From the IMG/VR virus record IMGVR_UViG_3300009826_000020, positions 1 through 64,000 of that record: a stretch of 64,000 bases of DNA; one strand, given 5' to 3'. Below the pieces are notes generated by a model that did no database searches, was not told the DNA's origin, and was given only the letters and a program-made list of their open reading frames with translations. The translations under genes and the position numbers were made by a program. Shown here one piece after another: positions 1,683 through 42,478 of this stretch; positions within the stretch are counted from its first letter, which is position 1; each line of letters opens with the position of its first letter. The DNA comes from a virus (taxonomy: Duplodnaviria > Caudoviricetes).

Positions 1683-1884
1683 TCTCCTCCCGCACGAACC
1701 GCTGGAGATCCTCGATGGAAAACATCGTGCGTCGGCCCAATTTGATTGGATGGAGTTTCCCCTGGGTCACCAGCCGCTGCAGCAGGCCGACGCTGATCCC
1801 GCCCAAAACCTTGGCGGCTGCTTCGGCACTGTAGAGCAGTGGTTCGGGGTCCTCCTCATCGTCATAGGGGGACCTCTCGGGCAT
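1663..1884 (-). CDS. excisionase-like helix-turn-helix DNA-binding protein
   Basis: LLYSAEAAAKVLGGISVGLLQRLVTQGKLHPIKLGRRTMFSIEDLQRFV matches the HTH_17/Xis pattern. Confidence 0.75.
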   Translation of the reverse strand: MPERSPYDDEEDPEPLLYSAEAAAKVLGGISVGLLQRLVTQGKLHPIKLGRRTMFSIEDLQRFVREETSSEGE

Positions 1885-2858
1885 CAGCGAGCCAGGCGGC
1901 GTGCCGGTGCAGGCCTATCCTCCTCGTCGGGCTTGGCTGGCTCGGGCGGGGTCAGGTTGAACGCCACGCCCTCCAGGCCCTGCAGGAAGTGCGTTGCCCA
2001 CAGGTCCAGTCCATCGATGAGGTTGGCCGTAAAGCCGCCCAGAACGCCCTGTAGGGCCTCCAGGTCCACCAGGGTGGTGGGTGTAGCTCCGAGAGCTTCT
2101 GTGCCCCTCCCTGGTGTTGCAGGACCCTGTGTGGTGGCTTCTGGGCTGTCCTCGGCCTCAAGGATCGCCTGGATCATGTTCTCCCGGGCCTTCCTCGGTG
2201 CCAGGCCCATGCCGGTGGCGATGTCCTTGACGTCGGCGTGGGAGAGCTTCTCAAGCTGGGCACGGGTGTGGGCGTGGGTCAATTCTGCCGTTGCCGCCGG
2301 GACCTCTTCCTCTTCAGCCTCGTCCTCTGGCTGCTCGGCTTCCTCGTCGTCTTCGTCCTCGTCCTCTGGCTCAGGCTCTTCCTGGGTGCCGGTCTCCTCG
2401 AAGGCGAGCACATGCCCGCCCGCCTTCAGGTCCCGCACCTCGATCCCGGCGTCGATAAACCGACCGGCGATGTCGTTCAATTCCTCCCGCTCATCGTCCC
2501 AGAGCACCATGAGGGTCGATTTGGGCAAGGCGTCGACCAGAATCGCCTCCATCTGCGTCCAGATATCGGGGACGGTATAGGTCTTGGTGGCGGATTGCGA
2601 TACCTCGATCATCGCCCGTTTGGTGATACTGCCCGTGGAGACGACCTCATAGGCGATCTTCGAGGCCTGGGCCATTGTGACCAACTCGTGCATCGAGTCT
2701 GAGAATTCCTCAGAGGTCAGGGGGAAAACGAACCGCACCGGGTCATCGGGGCTGGCGGCGCTGTTCAGGTACTCCTCAATGACCGTGGTGGCGGGGTCGA
2801 CCTTCATCTCGCCCGTGCCCAGGAATCCAATCGTGACACCCTCGGACCTTCTCGGCAT
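1884..2858 (-). CDS. hypothetical protein: Rossmann-like N-terminus, acidic tract, Rho-N/HeH-like module
   Basis: IGFLGTG start; EPEPEDEDEDDEE tract; RAQLEKLSHADVKDIATGMGL...RENMIQAILEAE; GGAGG SD. Confidence 0.6.
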   Translation of the reverse strand: MPRRSEGVTIGFLGTGEMKVDPATTVIEEYLNSAASPDDPVRFVFPLTSEEFSDSMHELVTMAQASKIAYEVVSTGSITKRAMIEVSQSATKTYTVPDIWTQMEAILVDALPKSTLMVLWDDEREELNDIAGRFIDAGIEVRDLKAGGHVLAFEETGTQEEPEPEDEDEDDEEAEQPEDEAEEEEVPAATAELTHAHTRAQLEKLSHADVKDIATGMGLAPRKARENMIQAILEAEDSPEATTQGPATPGRGTEALGATPTTLVDLEALQGVLGGFTANLIDGLDLWATHFLQGLEGVAFNLTPPEPAKPDEEDRPAPARRLAR

Positions 2859-2957
2859 GTGACCTCCCTTGGAGACTTTCGGTGGTCACATAGGAGCACA
2901 CTCCATCACTGAGCGTGTGCCCGTGGGGAAAGTTTTCCTAGCGAACGTAGGAATGGC

Positions 2958-2992
2958 GAAGGCCCTCCCCTTAGACCAGGAGGAGGGCCTTC
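2958..2992. terminator. GC-rich hairpin, terminator-like
   Basis: GAAGGCCCTCC / GGAGGGCCTTC 11-bp stem with 13-nt loop in an intergenic gap; no clear U-tract. Confidence 0.45.
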
Positions 2993-3063
2993 TAAATGCT
3001 CCCGAACGGCTGGACACTTCTCGTTGGAGGCGTCGTCACCATAACACGGGTACTACCTCTTGT

Positions 3064-3366
3064 CTAGCGCCTTCTCGCTCGGCTCTTCTCCAGTACCTCA
3101 GTGGCGAGACGGTCACGGTAGTGCCGTAGGCACGTATCGACGGCGTGGGCGAGCATGGAAATCCCGGCGGCACCAGCAATGACCAGCACTTCTGTTCTGA
3201 TGTGCTCGTGCAGGACCAGGATCCCGCCCACGGCGCAGATCACAATATTGAGTGCTGCTTTAAACCATGGTGCCTGATAAACCCCCATCCTGGCTGCGAC
3301 CTCCTTCCATAGCTCGGTGAGTCTGGTCGCCCCGAGGCCGAGCAGCAGAGCGTAGAGCGCTACCAC
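3064..3366 (-). CDS. membrane protein (holin-like topology)
   Basis: three hydrophobic segments and basic C-terminus; GTG start at 3366 overlaps upstream stop (ORF track starts at 3441). Confidence 0.6.
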   Translation of the reverse strand: MVALYALLLGLGATRLTELWKEVAARMGVYQAPWFKAALNIVICAVGGILVLHEHIRTEVLVIAGAAGISMLAHAVDTCLRHYRDRLATEVLEKSRARRR

Positions 3367-4004
3367 AGGGTGGGATCGAGGGGTGGCATCACCGATCCTG
3401 CCATGTAGGTGACCGAATACGTGGTCGAGAGGGGGATCCAACGGTAGATCTCGCTGTTGATCCTGGCGAGTCGCTTGGACCGACCCGGGAAGTAATAGGC
3501 AGCACCCGTGACCGGGTCCTGCAGGTAGTCACCCGTGCTCATGTTGATCGTGGTTCCGTCCATGAACGGTGGCATCGATACCGTGGGACTCAACATAGCC
3601 GAGTTCAGCAGGAAATTGCCCTGTGGGGCAAGGGGAAAGCGCACGAACGGGAACATCTGGTTGGGGAATTCGCCCGTTAAGGGCCGCTGGGGCGGTTCGC
3701 TCAGGTAATCGTTGCTGCCGTCCGCAGGGGATATGGCATATCGCTCGTAGTCGGTGGTCAGGTTGTAGTTGGTCGACGTCTCAACCCAGGTGCCATCTGA
3801 GTAATACCAGCGGAACCCGAGCGTCATCACGGCAAGAGAGGGGTCGAGGATCGACAGGTATTTGGCGTAGACGCTGAAATTGAACGGCTGCCCCTGGGAG
3901 ACGTTGTACGGGGCGACGTTGCAGTTGAAGGGCGGCTGTGCGCCCGGAGGGAACCAGATCCCGCCAACGATCTCCTGGCTGACGCTGAAATAGTCACCCG
4001 GCAC
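3360..4004 (-). CDS. baseplate/tail protein; looks like the C-terminal half of the gpI-like protein at 40350-42478
   Basis: beta-sandwich remainder (QGQPFNFSVYAKY...LGFRWY) ending in YYFPGRSKRLARI...RWIPLSTTYSVTY, the kind of C-terminus seen in gpI-like baseplate proteins. Confidence 0.6.
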   Translation of the reverse strand: MPGDYFSVSQEIVGGIWFPPGAQPPFNCNVAPYNVSQGQPFNFSVYAKYLSILDPSLAVMTLGFRWYYSDGTWVETSTNYNLTTDYERYAISPADGSNDYLSEPPQRPLTGEFPNQMFPFVRFPLAPQGNFLLNSAMLSPTVSMPPFMDGTTINMSTGDYLQDPVTGAAYYFPGRSKRLARINSEIYRWIPLSTTYSVTYMAGSVMPPLDPTLW

Positions 4005-4008
4005 GGGC

Positions 4009-4392
4009 CTACCTCAGCTTTTTTGCATAAGCACCGGCTGCGATGGTGAAGGTATCGCCCAGGTTCACGGGCTTGGGTGTGGCCAGTTCCCCGAACCATC
4101 TTCGTACGGGGGTGGGGGCCGAGTCCCACTCCTCAACCCCCACCACGATGCAATCGGGCATGTTCACCCAGGCCAGGGTCTCGTTGGTGACGATGACCTC
4201 ATCGGCGGGGTAGGCGAAGGTCACGTCCTGCCGGGTGTAATCGCCGCCCTCCACCTCCTCCCCCTCGGTTGTCTTCGTGCCCATGACGGTCACCAGACCC
4301 ACCTTGATCGGAAGGACAGGGGCCGGGTACTCGATGAGGCCGACCTGAGCCGCCAGGATCGAATTCGACTCGACCATCGTTAAATTTGGCAT
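4009..4392 (-). CDS. small virion (tail-fibre-associated) protein
   Basis: EVEGGDYTRQDVTF...FGELATPKPVNLGDTFTIAAG pattern; likely start MPNL at 4392. Confidence 0.65.
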   Translation of the reverse strand: MPNLTMVESNSILAAQVGLIEYPAPVLPIKVGLVTVMGTKTTEGEEVEGGDYTRQDVTFAYPADEVIVTNETLAWVNMPDCIVVGVEEWDSAPTPVRRWFGELATPKPVNLGDTFTIAAGAYAKKLR

Positions 4393-4589
4393 GCGTTCAC
4401 CCTTTCGATGCACAGAGGACACCCGTCATCTGCACAACAGGCGAAGTGCTTTGTTAGCGTGACGTCATCCTCGATGACCTGGATATGGCGGGGCAGGTCA
4501 TCGAGGCGTCCACATTTATCACAGGGACGGAGCAGTGCCCCCCGTATCCCCAGGGCTACTGCTCTCCCTCTCCCGCAGTACTCGCACAT
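4380..4589 (-). CDS. Cys-rich small protein
   Basis: CxxC, CxxC, CC..CxxC; TAATCT 6 nt upstream of ATG. Confidence 0.5.
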   Translation of the reverse strand: MCEYCGRGRAVALGIRGALLRPCDKCGRLDDLPRHIQVIEDDVTLTKHFACCADDGCPLCIERVNACQI

Positions 4590-24535: not shown

Positions 24536-26509
24536 ATGCTTATTCCCCGGACGGTACATACGCCTGAAGATCTGAAACAGTTGGTACAGGACTACTCGGA
24601 ATTCTCTGAGTTCTCCTTCGACGTCGAGACGCATGCGACCCGTCACGTCCGGGCACTACAGAAGCAGAGGGTACTGGCACGGTCCCGTTACGGGGGCCGT
24701 GTCGCCTTCTGTGAGTCCTGTGGGCAGAGGCTGCCGCCTAGGCGGATGAAATTCTGCTCCGATGTCTGCCAGCGTGCCGCCGGGAAGGACAAGCCCGCCC
24801 TCGATCCCACCACGAACAGGGTCTGGTCCATCAGCCTTGCTGGCCCGGGACGATCTGACGTGATCCCTTGTGGGCACCCGGATACTGCCCAGCCCCAGCT
24901 TCACCGTAGTGAGGTCATGCAGGCCCTGCAACCACTCTTCTTCTCCGACCGCCGCAAGATCAACCAGAACGTTGGCTTCGACCTGCTCACGATTGCTAAA
25001 TACTACGACGGAAAAATCCCGCCACCACCCTATGGCGACGTGATGACGTTGATATTTATCATCAACGAAAACCTCGGTCGCTACAACCTCGCCAGTCTTG
25101 CCGAACACTATCTGGGCTATACCTACGCCGAGAAGTTGGGTGAAGAGGCCTATCGGGTGGAGTTCGAGCGGGCAATGAACTACTCACTCACCGACGCAAA
25201 AATGGCTTGGCTCCTCTGGTGGAAAATGGCTCCCGTGCTGGAGGACCGCCCGAAGTTGTCCTGGCTCTTTGACCTGGAGATGGATGTGCTCCGGGTGCTT
25301 CTGCACATGCGCCAGCACGGGGCCTACGTCGACTACGACGGGTTTCAGCAATTGCACCCCCAGCTTCTCGACCAATTGCACATGCTGGAGGAGGAGATCC
25401 ACGAGATGGCTGGGCGTGAGATCAACCTCAATTCCACACAGCAGTTGGGACGATGGCTGTATGACAAGCCGCCCGAGGGGTTGGGATTGCCGTGTCTCTG
25501 GTACACCGAGACGGGGCAACGTTCGACCAGTGCCGATGCTCTCAAGCGGTTGATCAAAAAACACAAAGCGCCCCAGAAGATTTTGTCCTACAAAGACGTC
25601 TCGAAGATGCTCTCCACCTATGTGGCTGGCTTCTTTCCGCACATCGATGCCGACTCACGAATCCGTCCCAGCTTCAACCAGGCCGTGGCGAAGACCGGCA
25701 GGCTCAGTTGTAGCTCACCGAATGCCCAGAATATCCCCGCCCGATACAGGGAAAATACTGAGGCCGAGGGTGACATGGTGCGCCGTCTCTTCGTGGCCCC
25801 ACCGGGGAAGAAGCTGATCGTGGCCGACTACAGCCAGATCGAGCTACGTGTGCTCGCCCACCAGACCAAGGACCGCATGCTCCTCTACGCCTACAGGGAG
25901 GGGCTGGATCTCCACACCCAGACGGCGTCCCTGATCTACAAGGTGCCTGAGGACAAGGTCACCACAGAGCAGCGAGCCATCGCCAAAAACAGCAACTTCA
26001 ACCTGAGCTTTGAGGGTGGCCCCGGGCGCATCGTGGAAATGTCCGGTATATCCAAGGACGAGGCCCAAAAGGTTTACAACGCCTGGCATGCCGCCTATCC
26101 TGGGGTGAAGAAGTGGGGTAGCTCTGTAAAGCGTCAATGCTTTACGGATGGCTATGTCGAAACCCTCTATGGACGCAAGCGGAGGCTGCCCGATATCAAG
26201 TCCTCTGACAACAAGCTACGCAGTTATGCTGAGCGCCAGGCTGTCAACCATCCGATCCAGGGCACCGCCGCCGACATTGCAAAAATCGCTCTGATCCAGG
26301 TACACGAAGTCCTTCGCCTTTTTAACGCCAGTCTGGTGCTCCAGATCCATGATGAGTTTGTGATCGAGTGCGAGGAGGACAAGGTGGACGAGGTTCTCCC
26401 CCTGGTCAGAGAGGCCATGGAGGATATCCGCCTGAGGGGTCGTCCTGTATTAGATGTACCATTGGAAGTCAATATAGGCATTGGAAATGATTGGGCCGCA
26501 GCAAAATGA
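24536..26509 (+). CDS. polA: family A DNA polymerase (3'-5' exonuclease plus polymerase) with zinc-finger insertion
   Basis: FDVET, NVGFD, YSLTDA; ADYSQIELRVLAH; R..AK...F; QIHDE. Confidence 0.95.
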   Translation: MLIPRTVHTPEDLKQLVQDYSEFSEFSFDVETHATRHVRALQKQRVLARSRYGGRVAFCESCGQRLPPRRMKFCSDVCQRAAGKDKPALDPTTNRVWSISLAGPGRSDVIPCGHPDTAQPQLHRSEVMQALQPLFFSDRRKINQNVGFDLLTIAKYYDGKIPPPPYGDVMTLIFIINENLGRYNLASLAEHYLGYTYAEKLGEEAYRVEFERAMNYSLTDAKMAWLLWWKMAPVLEDRPKLSWLFDLEMDVLRVLLHMRQHGAYVDYDGFQQLHPQLLDQLHMLEEEIHEMAGREINLNSTQQLGRWLYDKPPEGLGLPCLWYTETGQRSTSADALKRLIKKHKAPQKILSYKDVSKMLSTYVAGFFPHIDADSRIRPSFNQAVAKTGRLSCSSPNAQNIPARYRENTEAEGDMVRRLFVAPPGKKLIVADYSQIELRVLAHQTKDRMLLYAYREGLDLHTQTASLIYKVPEDKVTTEQRAIAKNSNFNLSFEGGPGRIVEMSGISKDEAQKVYNAWHAAYPGVKKWGSSVKRQCFTDGYVETLYGRKRRLPDIKSSDNKLRSYAERQAVNHPIQGTAADIAKIALIQVHEVLRLFNASLVLQIHDEFVIECEEDKVDEVLPLVREAMEDIRLRGRPVLDVPLEVNIGIGNDWAAAK

Positions 26510-36416: not shown

Positions 36417-38284
36417 GTACCTCGCCAGTTTCCCTCGGGACGGTCTCGGATATTATCCCGTCCTCGATCATCGTCCCCCCTGTCGATTACACCAGCCGTG
36501 ATTATGCCTCGCTGGTGAACGACATGCTCAACCTGATCCCGAGCTATTTGCCGGAGTGGACCGACCGGTCTCCAGGGGATTTTGGCATCGTGATGCTGGA
36601 ATTGTTTGCCTACGTGGGCGACATCCTGAATTTCTACTCAGACCGTATCGCCAATGAGGCGTATATCGGTACAGCCCAGCAGCGGCAGTCGGTGCTGAAT
36701 ATCGCCAACATGCTGGACTACACGCCTCATGGCAATGTGGCGGCGAGCGTTGTGCTCAGTTTCACGATCTCCTCGCCCTCGGGTCCTGTCCTTATTCCAC
36801 AAGGGTCCCAGGTCTCCACCATGCTCACGGGTATCAAGGCCACGATCTTCGAGACGGTGGAAGATCTCTGGGTTTATGGGGACGGTATCTCCACCACAAA
36901 AGTCATTACCAGTAATGGTCTGCCGAATCAGACCATTCTGATGGACGATCCTTCACTGCCTTACCCCTCTTACAATTTTACCGGTGGTTCCGAGCATCAA
37001 TCGGTTTCGGTTGGCGGTGAGAACTGGCCGATCTCGGCTGGTAATGAATTCCATGGGATCGGGACGGACAAGCTCTACACTGTGATCAACGGTAATACAA
37101 TCCAGTTCGGAAATGGGATCAACGCCGCCATCCCCCCTGCTGGTCAGTCGATAATCGTCACCTTTATACCTGCAGTCCCGGGCACCTACGTGGGTCAGGT
37201 CAATGCTCTCCAGGGGGAGAGCCAGATCGGTGAGGGTATCGGGATCTCTGATGGTACGCCCAACCAGCAATATACCCTCTTCAATACCCCGGTGGTAGAC
37301 GGCTCGATCCAGGTCTTTATCAACGAGGGTGCGACTCCCACCGAGTGGATCTATCACCAGCGGATGATCGATGCCTTCTCCTCAGAGGGCGCATATACCT
37401 ATGACGTGGACGCCAACGGTGTCGTCACCATTCGATTCGGGGATGGGATCTCAGGACGCATTCCACCCCAGGGTGTGCTGATTTCTGCCAACTATATGGT
37501 CGGTGGTGGGTCTATTGGCAATGTCGCCGCCCATTCCATCACCCAGATGATGTCCGGCATTACCGGTGTGGTTGCTGTCGACAACCCGGATGCTGCCACA
37601 GGTGGAGCCGACCAGGAGACCATCGACCACATCCGCATCCACGCTCCCCTGTCGATGTCTGCCATCAACAGGGCCGTGACCCTGGACGACTACGCCGCTC
37701 TCACGCTCAACGTCCCGCAGATCGCCAAGGCCGCAGCCATGTCGACTGCCTACAACCAGGTGAACATTTTCATTCATCCAGCGGGTGATTTTCTTGCCAC
37801 TGGCCCTGAGGACACCACTGGAATAGCTACCCTGACGAGGCGTGTCAATGCTCTCCTGCCCTCGCTGACGAATTCCGGCTACACGGGCTACCTTGACGAC
37901 AAGAAAATGGTGAGTACGTCCGTTGTCATTCTGCCTCCGCAGTACGATAATAAAGGCGTGCGCCTGACCGGCTATGTTCCCTGTAATGTCACGGCTACTG
38001 TCCAGGTCTTGCCCCAGTATCATCAGTCGTCTGTCCGGTCACTGGCAGAAGCGGCCCTTCGTAATCTCTTTCTCTTCTCGGTGGTGGATTTTGGATCTCG
38101 AATCACACTATCGAGCGTCTATCATGCCCTCATGAATGTCGAGGGTGTTGACTACGTCAATGTCAACCTCATGGCCCGCAATGAGGCGGATCAGTCAGCG
38201 GCTCCTGCTGACATCGAGTGTGAGGCGTACGAGATCCCCAGGGCCTACCAGATCAACGTCAACGCCAACGGGGGGGTGTTGTAA
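36413..38284 (+). CDS. baseplate J-like wedge protein
   Basis: VDYTSRDY...PEWTDRSPGDFGIVMLELFAY; GGADQET...RAVTLDDY. Confidence 0.9.
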   Translation: MSTSPVSLGTVSDIIPSSIIVPPVDYTSRDYASLVNDMLNLIPSYLPEWTDRSPGDFGIVMLELFAYVGDILNFYSDRIANEAYIGTAQQRQSVLNIANMLDYTPHGNVAASVVLSFTISSPSGPVLIPQGSQVSTMLTGIKATIFETVEDLWVYGDGISTTKVITSNGLPNQTILMDDPSLPYPSYNFTGGSEHQSVSVGGENWPISAGNEFHGIGTDKLYTVINGNTIQFGNGINAAIPPAGQSIIVTFIPAVPGTYVGQVNALQGESQIGEGIGISDGTPNQQYTLFNTPVVDGSIQVFINEGATPTEWIYHQRMIDAFSSEGAYTYDVDANGVVTIRFGDGISGRIPPQGVLISANYMVGGGSIGNVAAHSITQMMSGITGVVAVDNPDAATGGADQETIDHIRIHAPLSMSAINRAVTLDDYAALTLNVPQIAKAAAMSTAYNQVNIFIHPAGDFLATGPEDTTGIATLTRRVNALLPSLTNSGYTGYLDDKKMVSTSVVILPPQYDNKGVRLTGYVPCNVTATVQVLPQYHQSSVRSLAEAALRNLFLFSVVDFGSRITLSSVYHALMNVEGVDYVNVNLMARNEADQSAAPADIECEAYEIPRAYQINVNANGGVL

Positions 38285-39058
38285 ATCCCCGCTTTTCCAT
38301 CCTCGATCAAGGTTTTCCAGACGTTCCAGAATTACACTGATATCATCTGGGCGATCAGTATCAACGAATGTCATGATGAGATCGTCGCCCTTGAGTCAAT
38401 CCTGGGCGTCAATCCTTTCATCGGCACACCCTATACGACCTTCAGTGGTGCCATTCAGGATCTATACGCCAACAAGGCTCCCGCCAACCACACCCACATT
38501 CACTCCAACCTGTTGGACGACAACATAGGGAATGACCATCCTCAGTACATCATGGCGAGCGGGTACCCAGGCTTCAGTGCGCCCGTGGTGGGCGTGGCGG
38601 GTGGTAATGCAGCCAACCTGGTGACCCTGGCCCAGGTGCAGGGCTTCGGCTATGTCAACGAGGCCACGGTGCGCTCCATTGCCACCAGCATGATCAACAG
38701 TGCCGAGGGTGGCCTGATGGTTGGGGCCTGGGGCACTCAGCCCTTGATAGGGGTCGCCCCCAACCCCAGTTGGACGATCCAGGGCGGGGTCTACTCAGCC
38801 TGTACAGACGCCAGTGGCCGGATAACGATCCCCTTCAACCCCCATTATTCGCATTGTGTGCAGTCCGTCTCTGTCACGAAAATGCCTGCAACGCCCCAGG
38901 CAGGTGGCCATTATCCATGCCCACCATATGACTGGATCGAGTCCCAGGTCACCCTTCTTGGCGCATCAGGTACGGGAGCCGTTGTCCAATTCTCCCATGA
39001 CTACAGTTGGCAACCCGGTATGTGGGTGACAATCATGTACATGGCTATGGGGAATTAG
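38285..39058 (+). CDS. minor tail/fibre protein; apparent start codon ATC
   Basis: frame open from 38285 with no ATG/GTG/TTG until 38513; the 76 extra codons align to the N-terminus of paralogue 39059-40336. Confidence 0.7.
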   Translation: MPAFPSSIKVFQTFQNYTDIIWAISINECHDEIVALESILGVNPFIGTPYTTFSGAIQDLYANKAPANHTHIHSNLLDDNIGNDHPQYIMASGYPGFSAPVVGVAGGNAANLVTLAQVQGFGYVNEATVRSIATSMINSAEGGLMVGAWGTQPLIGVAPNPSWTIQGGVYSACTDASGRITIPFNPHYSHCVQSVSVTKMPATPQAGGHYPCPPYDWIESQVTLLGASGTGAVVQFSHDYSWQPGMWVTIMYMAMGN

Positions 39059-40336
39059 ATGTCCGACGTACCGGATATGCCGGTAACTGACCGAGGTGAG
39101 ATCCCACCGGTAGTTGCTAGTCGGCGTTATCCGCAGGCCATACGTAATTTTGTCACCTACCTTGATCAGCCCGGTGGACCGGATCGGTTCCTGGTCACCG
39201 CCAATACCCAAGGCGGCGGGACCACCACCACCGACGTCACCCTTGACGCCGCCGCCGTCACTCGTGATGTGCAGACTGAGATAGTCAGCCTGGAGACGGT
39301 TATCGGTATACGGCCTTGGACTGTGCCCGGGACGGTCGATATCGGTGGTTCAATCAGGTGGCTGTACAACAATAAGGCTGCTGGTCGAGTCGATACTCGG
39401 AACGAAATACCTCCGGCTCCCCCGCCCTCGCACAACCATGTCCACGCCCAGTCGACAGGACTCAATGCCGATGATCACCCGATCTACATGCGGGTCGATG
39501 GCACGAGGCATTTCTCGGCTGCTGTGCTGGGCAAGAACGGCACCGCCGGTAATCATCTGTTGACACTCGGGCAGGTCCAGCCGGGTGGGCCGCTTGCTGG
39601 GCTGACCTCAAGTCAGGTGCAGGCCATCATTCAGGGTCTGATCAATGCCTCCTCGAACAACCCCTGCCGTGGGCCGGATTCCCGCCGATGGAAGATGGCT
39701 GGTGGGGTAGCACAGGGCTATACGGATGCCAACGGTAACCTGGCCTTCAGTATTGCGGCGGCTAAATTCAACGGGATCCTCAGTTTTCTCTTTATGAAGA
39801 TGCCCCATGCGGGTACCACGGCTGTCAACCTGAGCTTCACGCTTTCCGGTGATGTGCTCTTTGCCTTCGACAGTTCGGCCCTCTCGTCCGGTGCTGTGGC
39901 CGAACTGAACAGCATTGCCCTCACGCTGAGGAGTTCGCCCTCTGGGAGTGTGCATGTTGTCGGTCACACCGACTCGATAGGCACGTATGCCTACAACCTC
40001 GGCCTCTCGCAGCGACGGGCTGCCAGTGTGATGTCGTACTTTTCTGCCCATGTTGGCAATTCCCAGCTTCGGTATTCGAGTGAAGGGCGCAGTTATAGCG
40101 ATCCTGTGGCCCCCAACACTCTGCCCAACGGCGCAGATAATCCCGCCGGTCGAGCGCTGAACCGCCGTGTCGAGATCAGCTACGTGCCTGACGTTCGCTA
40201 CGCTTATCAATACATGGAGGATCAGCTTCTGCTCACCTCCCTGACCAATAGCAGTGCAGTCGTCACCTTCATTGAGGATGTCAGGGTGGACAAGCAGGCT
40301 CTGGTCAGCCTCTGTTGGCTGGCACTGGGGATATAG
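39059..40336 (+). CDS. tail fibre paralogue with inserted OmpA-like peptidoglycan-binding domain
   Basis: LSGDVLFAFDS..L...VVGHTDSIG...NLGLSQRRA..V...G.S..DPVAPN...GRALNRRVEI (about 39824-40189). Confidence 0.85.
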   Translation: MSDVPDMPVTDRGEIPPVVASRRYPQAIRNFVTYLDQPGGPDRFLVTANTQGGGTTTTDVTLDAAAVTRDVQTEIVSLETVIGIRPWTVPGTVDIGGSIRWLYNNKAAGRVDTRNEIPPAPPPSHNHVHAQSTGLNADDHPIYMRVDGTRHFSAAVLGKNGTAGNHLLTLGQVQPGGPLAGLTSSQVQAIIQGLINASSNNPCRGPDSRRWKMAGGVAQGYTDANGNLAFSIAAAKFNGILSFLFMKMPHAGTTAVNLSFTLSGDVLFAFDSSALSSGAVAELNSIALTLRSSPSGSVHVVGHTDSIGTYAYNLGLSQRRAASVMSYFSAHVGNSQLRYSSEGRSYSDPVAPNTLPNGADNPAGRALNRRVEISYVPDVRYAYQYMEDQLLLTSLTNSSAVVTFIEDVRVDKQALVSLCWLALGI

Positions 40337-40349
40337 GGAGGAGGACACG

Positions 40350-42478
40350 ATGGGCGTATATGGCCTGGATTTTACGGAGTAGGTCGCTTCGGGCGGGATC
40401 CCGCCCTTGAGCGGCCTGACTTCTCTGTTCAGCCCTTCGCCACCATGCCTCTCAGCTATTCCAGCCTGTACCTGTCCTGGGTGAAGCCCGTATCCCCTGA
40501 CTGCGTGACTCTGCGCCTGGTGCGTACCGGCCTGAACCTCTCCCAGAATCCCGGCGCTGATCCCGGCACTACCACGAATGCCGACGCAGGCTCGGATGGT
40601 TATGTGCTCTTCACCGACACCGTGGATCGGCTACCGAACTTTATTGATGTGGGTCTTGGTGGTGGGTTTTTCTATTACACGATGTGGGGTTGGTCCAACC
40701 AGGACCAGATCTGGATCCGCTGCTCCGATGTGATCGGCCTGGTGCCCCTCAACTGGAACTATGGCTGGCGGCTGTACATGCTCCTCCCCGAGGCCTACCG
40801 GGACCGTGACTGGGTCCTGGTGGATCACTACAACCCTCTGGCCCTGCCCCGGCAGAATGACTTCAGGCCCTACGAGGTGGAGAGTGGTGATTCGTGGCAG
40901 ACACTCGCCTCCCACTACGGCACCACGCCAGAGAGCCTGGCGTACATCAACGGTGAGGTGATCTCGACTCCTCTGACATTGGGTCAATCGATCCTGGTGC
41001 CCTGGCCGAATTCTCCTAACCCGGATCCGCCCCTCAGGCGATTCCTGGGTCTGATCGGATTCCAGTTCGACTTCATCCGCACCGAGCTTGAATCGCTCAT
41101 GAGCGTCAATGACGCCATGCACTGCTCGGGTGCGCTCCTGCCTCTGATGGCTCAGCAGTATGCCCTGGTGCATGAGCCGGAGATCGGGATGCAGCAGGAG
41201 CGCACCTTGGTACAGAACGCCGTGCATCTTTTCAAGCTGAAGGGCACTCCTCGGGGTATTACTGATTGGTGTTCGATCATGACGAGCTACCCCTTCTCCA
41301 GGTTGGTTCACCATGGCTATAACTGTCTGCTATGCCTCGATGATTCGGCCTTTACAGACGGGATAGGTACCTGGCAGTCCTGGCCCCCGAGGGGGGCGAG
41401 CTTCGAGGAGGAAAAGGAGCGCACCTGGTTCGACCCGGACTGGTTCTGTAATCAGACCTTCGGGTATTACTTCGGCTCTGGTGGTGTGAATGTCGAGGTC
41501 ACTGGATTCAAGTTGACCTGGATCCCTGATCTGCCTATGGCTGGGACCTCCAGCCCTCTGGGTGACATGTACCCTGATGGATTCCCTGTGTGGTCACCGG
41601 AATATCTCAATAGCGGTATGAGCCTGTCTGCCGATGGCCCGGGTACGCTGGACACCTGCACTGCAGGCATCCCTATCACCGACTTCGTGTCGGAGACATA
41701 CGGCCCTGGAAATGCCACCTTTCGTGTAGGTGTCTGGTCGCCCACAGCCCGTCAGGTCAACCTCTCAATCTGGGCCGACGAAGGGTCTGACGAGCCGATC
41801 CTCATTGCGGAGCAGAACTTCACCTCGGTGGCCGGTCACTGGTCGCTGTTCACTCTGACCACGCCCATCGATGTATATCCTGACCTGGACGGCCCTGCCC
41901 AGTACTACTGGCTCTATCCCCGTATTCGGATAATAAATGCCGCCGCTCATGAGGTACATTACGTCACGCTGGCTGCCCTCTGGCCCACAACCCCAAACCT
42001 GGTGGGTCTCAACACGCCTGAGTTTGACTATGCCCGTGACCTCAAGGTGAATCTTGAGCCGGTGGCTTCCAATCTTCTCGGTAATACCCTCACGAGTTTC
42101 GACCGTCTTAACCCTGATGATGGCAGGCTACGGATCGGATTCGATGGCCTCTGTGCTGTTGCTGACCCTATTACGAAGGCTGGCCCGCAGACAGGGCAAA
42201 TGGTCTACCGCCGCCAGACTGTCGATGATGCCCCGAGTTCCCTGACCGTCAACGGAAATGCCGCTCTGCAGTTCAACGTGACTGCGCCTGGTGGCACGGT
42301 GTGGTTTGGCAGGATACCCTCCTGGTCGCCCGAACCCCCGACTCCTGATGGATGGTGGGATCCCAAGACCAGTGACTGGTACCCGGGTGCTGGACCTGGA
42401 GCCTCTGCTGCTAGGCCATGGATGAGTGACACACTGGGCTGGTTCGCCATGCCCTTCCCGCCGGGAGTCAGCCTGTGA
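40350..42478 (+). CDS. gpI-like baseplate protein, N-terminal part, with LysM insertion; needs a -1 shift at 40367-40373
   Basis: LPEAY...LRRFL...LLPLMAQQY...LFKLKGT gpI pattern; LysM at 40871-41002; strong SD before ATG 40350, none before ATG 40445. Confidence 0.75.

Follow-up and report, generated by a model that had tools for sequence, protein, structure and literature searches.

We analysed a stretch of 64,000 nucleotides (nt; hereafter the window), which is the first 64 kb of the 83,018-base-pair (bp) IMG/VR virus record IMGVR_UViG_3300009826_000020, with a focus on the gpI-like gene of its baseplate cluster. This gene is likely to be expressed through an obligatory programmed -1 ribosomal frameshift at codon 8/9, which would act as a throttle on its expression. 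The reading is based on the anatomy of the gene start, the match of the joined product to its protein family, a hairpin that is both exceptional and specific to this lineage, and the pattern of start contexts among relatives.

The stop codon of the upstream gene, TAG at 40334-40336, shares its frame with the long open reading frame (ORF) of the gpI-like gene. The 13-nt spacer that follows holds the Shine-Dalgarno sequence GGGAGGAGGA (40336..40345, + strand, read directly), and five nt past it stands the ATG at 40350, behind GGAGGAGGA. From this ATG, frame 0 reads ATG GGC GTA TAT GGC CTG GAT TTT ACG GAG TAG, which encodes MGVYGLDFTE followed by a stop at 40380-40382. The frame-0 leader (40350..40382, +) consists of the ATG and codons 2-8 (MGVYGLDF) and then ACG GAG TAG. 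The -1 frame, which is that of the ORF 40445..42478, is open from 40337 to 42478 and reads ...FYGVGRFGRDPALERPDFSVQPFATMPLSY, with no ATG, GTG or TTG upstream of 40445. The internal ATG at 40445..40447 (+), from which gene callers start a product of 677 amino acids (aa), corresponds to residue 33 of the family protein, and no Shine-Dalgarno sequence was found before it (preceding bases CCCTTCGCCACC). The two frames stand in a -1 relation and the downstream frame has no usable start of its own, as expected of a frameshift signal. A model had earlier described this locus from the letters alone. In this sequence-only reading, the strong Shine-Dalgarno sequence, the ATG at 40350, the MGVYGLDF-TE-stop leader, its -1 continuation, the 677-codon ORF and the lack of a Shine-Dalgarno sequence before ATG 40445 were all placed correctly.

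A one-base slip on the T run at 40370-40373 leads through YGVGRFGRDP... into the 677-codon ORF. The joined product has 709 aa (MGVYGLDF-YGVGRFGRDPALERPDF...) and is composed of 8 frame-0 codons and 701 codons of the -1 frame; the latter part (40373..42478, +, 701 codons plus stop) belongs to a gpI-like (Tail_P2_I, LysM) baseplate protein, according to its translation, Pfam matches and homologues. The -1 product, MGVYGLDFYGVGRFGRDP..., reproduces the N-terminus that 44/54 family homologues encode in a single frame, where they are called with M-[GA]-[VI]-YG-[IV]-DFYGVGRFGRDP...RPDFSV. The 677-aa call omits 32 conserved N-terminal residues, and the invariant family residues F18, G19, D21, P22 and F34 (P0001 numbering, 41-sequence alignment) lie upstream of the called ATG. 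Frame-0 codons 1-8 depart from the consensus of the relatives at four synonymous positions and by one conservative replacement (I to L). Because consensus residues are kept both in codons 1-8 and in the stretch omitted from the 677-aa call, each segment appears to be under protein-level selection in its own frame. The predicted junction peptide is LDFYGVGR, and the predicted tryptic peptide across the shift is GVYGLDFYGVGR.

The proposed shift site is G_GAU_UUU (40367..40373, +), with an effective core of U_UUU at 40370-40373. On this core tRNA-Phe re-pairs perfectly one base back, as in a slippery motif, and the next codon is UAC (Tyr). In E. coli, U_UU.U is shift-prone when a stimulator is present and ranks third among six active tetramers (PMC4066793); the six most shift-prone Z_ZZN tetramers shift at 0.26-5.6% with a strong stimulator (PMC4066793). 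The precedent that the sequence-only reading had given for G_GAU_UUU also stands, since it is the site of pea enation mosaic virus RNA 2, and G_GA-type sites are listed for some umbraviruses and dianthoviruses (PMC5009743). No dnaX-type upstream stimulator resembling a Shine-Dalgarno sequence was seen at the right distance. Known tracts of transcriptional slippage are far longer than four T, and slippage of the polymerase was set aside on this general ground.

Behind a 7-nt spacer (40374..40380, +, from the fold), the RNA folds into a stable hairpin with a proposed stimulatory role (40376..40423, +). The core at 40381-40417 contains 9 + 6 bp (15 bp) with one 1x2 internal loop and a GAUC tetraloop, and its folding energy of -26.7 kcal/mol confirmed the hairpin that had been described from the letters seven nt downstream of the site. 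A 5-bp lower extension brings the hairpin at 40376-40423 to 20 bp and -33.2 kcal/mol (z = -4.8). The distance of 7 nt is within the 5-9 nt that separate a -1 shift site from its structure. The last five spacer nt form the lower extension of the stem, and a ribosome at the site would melt them. Among 200 dinucleotide shuffles, none folded as well as 40376-40423 (0/200), and a scan of 52-nt segments along the + strand of the 83-kb contig found only three places that reach -33 kcal/mol, the hairpin being one of them. When the same peptide was recoded synonymously with the codon usage of the phage, 0.24% of 5000 recodings folded as well (P = 0.0024). The other two of the most stable local RNA structures of the contig are at 24664-24712 (+; -35.3 kcal/mol), about 125 nt into a family-A DNA polymerase gene, and at 1457-1508 (approximately -33 kcal/mol), which is stable on both strands.

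Other roles for the hairpin were considered. No terminator-like site was found on either strand between 39800 and 40800, and the tail after the stem, GACUUCUCUGUU, has no U run of the kind an intrinsic terminator carries; a terminator was rejected. A known structured RNA family was likewise rejected, with 0 Rfam matches in the whole window at the gathering threshold. The two strands differ in stability: the antisense RNA reaches only -24.2 kcal/mol, 9 kcal/mol short of the sense RNA, since two of the stem pairs are G-U. This makes a role as a DNA palindrome or operator less likely. Counted from the A of the ATG, the distance to the stem is 32 nt, which places it outside the footprint of an initiating ribosome.

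To compare the locus with its relatives, we used DNA from 20 lineages, comprising 18 distinct IMG/VR lineages together with L040 and L041. The IMG/VR protein search contributed 4 loci and the alignment search 22 loci (18 distinct), and a Joint Genome Institute (JGI) metagenome search returned three contigs that had already been found. Among the short gene calls, the DNA comparison covered P0047, P0022 and P0053, but not P0036, P0037 and P0056. The closest relatives share ~57-60% protein identity with the window's protein, and none was closer in the collections searched.

The window's hairpin was absent from all related lineages with DNA. In 18 relatives, the corresponding 52-nt stretch has a folding energy between -11.6 and -23.6 kcal/mol, and the best 52-nt segment within the first 140 nt of the relatives' genes reaches -14.8 to -29.5 kcal/mol. 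The RNA of the sister lineage L041 folds at -13.3 kcal/mol, and only 11/20 of the window's pairs are possible in it. Between 40374 and 40425 the window and L041 differ at 12 nt, 11 of which are at paired positions; nine of these differences create a pair and 0 break one. One of the stem changes introduces Glu at a site where the relatives have no charged residue and mostly Val or Ile; undoing it costs 2.5 kcal/mol. Relative to the sister the substitutions are directional, and selection has evidently acted on the stem in this lineage, the only one that would need the shift. A hairpin found only where the shift is needed suggests a lineage-specific cassette; the same hairpin in unshifted relatives would have been uncoupled from the shift. 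Together with the match of the product to its family, this exceptional and lineage-specific hairpin supports the claim of a programmed -1 frameshift at codon 8.

The start contexts of the relatives fall into a clear pattern. In 16 lineages, an ATG or GTG start overlaps or abuts the upstream stop (TGATG, TAATG, TGAGTG, TGAC-ATG) without any spacer. In three lineages a spacer provides the gene with a Shine-Dalgarno sequence of its own, and all three carry a non-AUG codon at the start position: ATC in L041 (AGGGGG, then 8 nt; L041:1006-1030), ATT in L040 (GGAGGTGAT, then 6 nt; L040:1043-1075), and ACG in L021 / L007 (GGGGGTGG, then 4 nt; L007:1399-1450, equal to L021). Non-AUG starts were found in 3/3 lineages with their own spacer vs 0/16 coupled lineages (Fisher P ~0.001, calculated by hand). 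The L041 state was present in at least six sample assemblies, as judged from identical gene geometry. The window represents a fourth lineage with its own spacer, and has an ATG plus a shift instead of a non-AUG start. In E. coli, translation from AUC, AUU and AUA starts at 1-2% of the AUG level, and that from the other 57 codons, among which ACG must by implication be counted, at 0.1-1% of it (bioRxiv 10.1101/063800). The published efficiencies of the weak starts and of the stimulated U_UU.U shift are of a similar order. Since all relatives with their own spacer have a weak start, the pattern supports the idea, put forward in the sequence-only reading, that the shift attenuates expression, and an unattenuated in-frame ATG in the window would be the odd one out. 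One lineage, L024 (= L003), was ambiguous. In it, 48 nt are inserted between the stop of the preceding gene and the conserved GVYG (2935-3010); ATA stands where the ATG would normally be, behind AGGTGGTGG, and a GTG in the same frame adjoins the stop.

These weak starts also explain several short gene calls that might have been taken for frameshifts. The closest lineage (P0003 and two cluster members), which is called from MPIDY after a 110-nt gap, was considered as a candidate for sharing the frameshift and was rejected, the DNA of L041 being in frame with an ATC start. The short call of P0022 reflects an ACG start and that of P0053 an ATT start; P0047 has a mis-called GTG start and no shift. 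Gene callers drop 32 conserved residues in the window and ~22-55 residues, depending on the lineage, in the ATC, ATT and ACG relatives. Every examined relative of the latter kind was truncated, indicating that annotation pipelines mis-call the gpI-like family systematically.

Non-AUG starts also raise the possibility that there is no frameshift, and that the long frame begins at a non-AUG codon such as ATA 40358, with ATG 40350 opening a short decoy or leader ORF. ATA 40358 does lie in the long frame, and non-AUG starts behind a Shine-Dalgarno sequence occur in the three related lineages and also in the window itself, at the gene at 38285. This gene starts with ATC right after the gpJ stop (TAA ATC CCC; 38271-38290), behind GGGGGGGTG, where relatives have TAATG, and it contains no in-frame ATG, GTG or TTG before 38513. 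However, ATA 40358 is 12-13 nt from the Shine-Dalgarno sequence and would compete with a perfectly spaced ATG, and its product would begin with MWPGF and not with the conserved MGVYG-DF. Codons 1-8 of frame 0 keep the family residues, which indicates that frame 0 is under protein-level selection, and the hairpin would be left without a role. A non-AUG start of the long frame is therefore highly improbable.

Several observations weigh against a programmed shift. All 20 lineages with DNA encode the N-terminus in a single frame, a DNA pattern for the shifted arrangement matched 0 other contigs in IMG/VR, and neither the two frames nor the motif nor the structure is conserved among the relatives. 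The sequence-only reading had looked to relatives for the four T and the hairpin, and these were not kept; it had also named single-frame relatives without a hairpin as evidence that would overturn the shift. Literally, this is what was found, and we take it as a loss of support from conservation and not as a refutation. At the shift position most relatives have GAC TTC TAT, and L021 and L033 have GAT TTT TAT. The sister L041 has an in-frame GAT TTT TAC with five T, so that the window is exactly one T short, and a difference of T5 vs T4 resembles a homopolymer deletion or a sequencing error. The heptamer G_GAU_UUU is itself non-canonical, not being of the XXX type, and re-pairing of tRNA-Asp in the P site is poor (GAU to GGA). 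Sites of this kind act as tetramers in E. coli, with an efficiency of at best a few percent (PMC4066793). Because only the A-site tRNA-Phe re-pairs perfectly, the expected efficiency here would probably be ~1%. The zero-frame decapeptide would be useless, and there is no second protein of the kind produced in most known viral cases. The gpI-like gene also lacks its C-terminal ~215 aa, being cut by a 38-kb inversion, which can be read as decay. Finally, the unshifted lineages L020 (-29.5 kcal/mol) and L022 (-26.9 kcal/mol) have a different, moderately stable hairpin nearby, and the 5' region of the gene is therefore structure-prone in some lineages. The L020/L022 hairpin, at nt 34-85 of the gene, pairs Gly-His codons with downstream Val-Ala codons.

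The missing T might be a sequencing or assembly error, in which case the true run would be T5, the gene would be an ordinary single-frame ORF from ATG 40350, and nothing would be recoded. T4 vs T5 is a classic homopolymer miscall, the contig is a metagenome assembly, and GAT TTT TAY is in frame in L041, L021 and L033. The locus was, however, recovered independently by another assembler: the Logan assembly of SRR10512955 (2 samples) has an identical layout, with products of 425, 677 and 84 aa and a gap of 108 nt between the first two. We also compared all ORFs of the 77-kb relative G001 with the whole contig (tblastn). Over 39.6 kb aligned at >= 45% identity, 0 further frameshifts were found, which speaks against an indel-prone read technology, and the idea of an error-ridden contig was rejected, as the three flagged frame breaks vs G001 were antisense shadows at gene boundaries. 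An error would moreover make the window the sole lineage that combines a strong Shine-Dalgarno spacer with an unattenuated ATG, and would leave a selected hairpin unexplained. We regard an error as very unlikely.

A real but unprogrammed deletion from T5 to T4 would leave a gene that is dead or dying, or that yields a truncated protein from ATG 40445, with at most adventitious slippage and a hairpin that is coincidental or serves another role. The sister has the in-frame T5, homopolymers are deletion hot spots, and the shift is present in no relative. Low-level compensatory frameshifting at problem indels is a recognised class (PMC5009743), and the loss of the C-terminal ~215 aa to the inversion, together with the ATC start of the neighbouring gene, is readable as relaxed selection on the module. 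Yet the hairpin would then be a coincidence (P ~0.002; one of the three most stable in 83 kb; 9 changes relative to the sister that create a pair and none that breaks one). Conserved residues are kept in both frames and the 701 downstream codons are intact, and the deletion would have removed 32 conserved residues from a probably essential wedge component in the majority genotype. Non-AUG starts recur in the family and do not indicate decay. The genotype reached an abundance that allowed its assembly in two samples, and the family looks like a likely lytic, active phage: a search of 185,579 species genomes in GTDB returned 0 relatives of the family, and since no prophage copies were found there it is probably not a decaying prophage. 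A deletion without any programmed shift is thus an unlikely explanation.

If the shift is programmed, the following course of events would be expected. Initiation would be efficient at ATG 40350 behind the strong Shine-Dalgarno sequence, and MGVYGLDF would be translated. Once GAU occupies the P site and UUU 40371-40373 the A site, the front of the ribosome would run into the base of the G+C-rich hairpin of 15-20 bp, seven nt downstream. A minority of ribosomes would slip one base back, with tRNA-Phe moving from UUU 40371-40373 to UUU 40370-40372, and would go on with UAC GGA GUA... to make the 709-aa protein with the family N-terminus. The other ribosomes would stop at UAG 40380 after a 10-residue peptide. 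The net result would be a gene throttled roughly hundredfold, which sister lineages would achieve likewise through their ATC, ATT and ACG starts. The shifting itself, its efficiency and its purpose as a throttle are what we infer from the features described above. The purpose is probably to set the stoichiometry of a low-copy wedge protein. We lean slightly towards a more specific version of this idea, in which the wedge protein is needed at ~1% of the output of a good ribosome-binding site and different lineages use interchangeable devices to reach this level (stop/start coupling, ATC, ATT or ACG starts, and here a frameshift replacing the weak start). The frameshift would then be a pure throttle, with its precursor state still seen in the sister.

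The site resembles several known systems in part. Pea enation mosaic virus RNA 2 (an umbravirus) has the identical heptamer with a stem-loop close on its 3' side, and the zero-frame stop is 3 nt downstream of the site there and 6 nt here (PMC5009743). However, the umbraviruses and dianthoviruses are plant RNA viruses that use eukaryotic ribosomes and make a polymerase fusion late in the ORF with a long-distance kissing interaction, whereas the present case concerns a DNA phage, bacterial ribosomes, codon 8, no functional zero-frame product and a simple local hairpin. T7 gene 10A/10B (G_GUU_UUC) shares with the window a phage structural gene, bacterial ribosomes, tRNA-Phe on a U run and a non-identical X_XX, G_GU in T7 and G_GA in the window (PMC5009743), but in T7 the shift comes late in the gene, close to its 3' end, and makes a minor form of the capsid protein with a C-terminal extension, both products being used, whereas here no functional product would be made without the shift. 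In the tail assembly chaperones (lambda G/GT, P2 E/E+E') a -1 shift also occurs in a tail gene, where it sets a protein ratio; it differs in lying in another gene, at the 3' end, with two functional products and conservation across most tailed phages, as against one lineage here.

Among bacterial systems, IS3/IS911 orfAB (of insertion sequence (IS) elements) and dnaX likewise have a tetramer or heptamer prone to shifting that is followed, after a spacer of 5-8 nt, by a stable hairpin or pseudoknot on the 3' side. Low efficiency keeps the amount of transposase down in the IS elements, and U_UU.[U,C] tetramers are among the IS3-family sites (PMC4066793). Both differ from the window in that the site lies between two sizeable ORFs and the zero-frame product (OrfA, gamma subunit) is functional, and dnaX in addition has an upstream stimulator resembling a Shine-Dalgarno sequence. 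The AUU starts of infC and pcnB in E. coli also give ~1% expression despite a good Shine-Dalgarno sequence (bioRxiv 10.1101/063800), which is the outcome proposed here; compared with such weak-start throttles, the window has a normal ATG, and the throttle would have moved from initiation to early elongation. The +1 shift of prfB (RF2) at codon 26 is similar in being an early, obligatory shift for the only functional product with a short zero-frame peptide, and differs in being a +1 shift at a stop codon with an upstream Shine-Dalgarno stimulator and RF2 autoregulation; no feedback is evident here.

To our knowledge, nearly all known phage and viral -1 frameshifts make two useful proteins in a fixed ratio. 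What is known in the present case is the mechanism (U run, spacer and 3' hairpin), and the new elements are the location at codon 8, a role that consists only of attenuation, the use in a virion gene and the visible precursor in the sister. If the reading is true, frameshifting can be recruited as a plain expression throttle, at the price of discarding most ribosomes in a structural gene. The sister is the likely precursor state, with a weak ATC, five T and no hairpin, and would provide a clean before-and-after pair for the evolution of a frameshift cassette.

The gpI-like gene lies in a baseplate cluster with the order tail collar-domain protein (35011), gp25-like protein (35985), gpJ-like protein (36413), two fibre-like paralogues and the gpI-like gene itself. 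The first paralogue is a fibre-like gene of the 253-aa type (38285-39058), and the second is a tail-fibre-like gene of 425 aa (39059..40336, +, from the ORF list). The location of the gpI-like gene downstream of gp25/gpW-like and gpJ-like genes agrees with its assignment, and the relatives are syntenic. The PF09684 Tail_P2_I match in P0001 was marginal (E 1.3e-4; 22.2 bits vs a cut-off of 20.6; residues 244-314), and this domain is present in many homologues according to precomputed annotation; a Pfam LysM match was also found in the long ORF. The homologues come from soil-metagenome phage contigs of up to ~117 kb, and the family represents roughly 115-kb soil phages. The record is linear, with a CheckV completeness estimate of ~71%, and no phage tRNA genes were found in the window.

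A segment of 38 kb (~4005-42445), with genes for replication and the baseplate, is inverted with respect to five related contigs. The breakpoints are near 4004/4009 and 42445/42446, and no inverted repeats were found at them; the Logan assembly contains the right-hand junction as well. One breakpoint is inside the gpI-like gene, which stops 11 codons later. The C-terminal ~215 residues of the relatives are found here as a separate GTG ORF at 4004..3360 (-), directly after a gp80-like fibre gene (4422..4009), and the next two genes are at 3441..3064 and 2858..1884.

The tail-fibre-like gene at 39059-40336 contains an insert (~39830-40190) with a complete OmpA-like peptidoglycan-binding domain (Pfam OmpA, E 7.5e-14), and its homologues of 277-314 aa are without the insert. 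This domain matched best to OmpA-family proteins from actinomycetes (Nonomuraea, Micromonospora, Actinomadura), a possible clue to the host of the phage.

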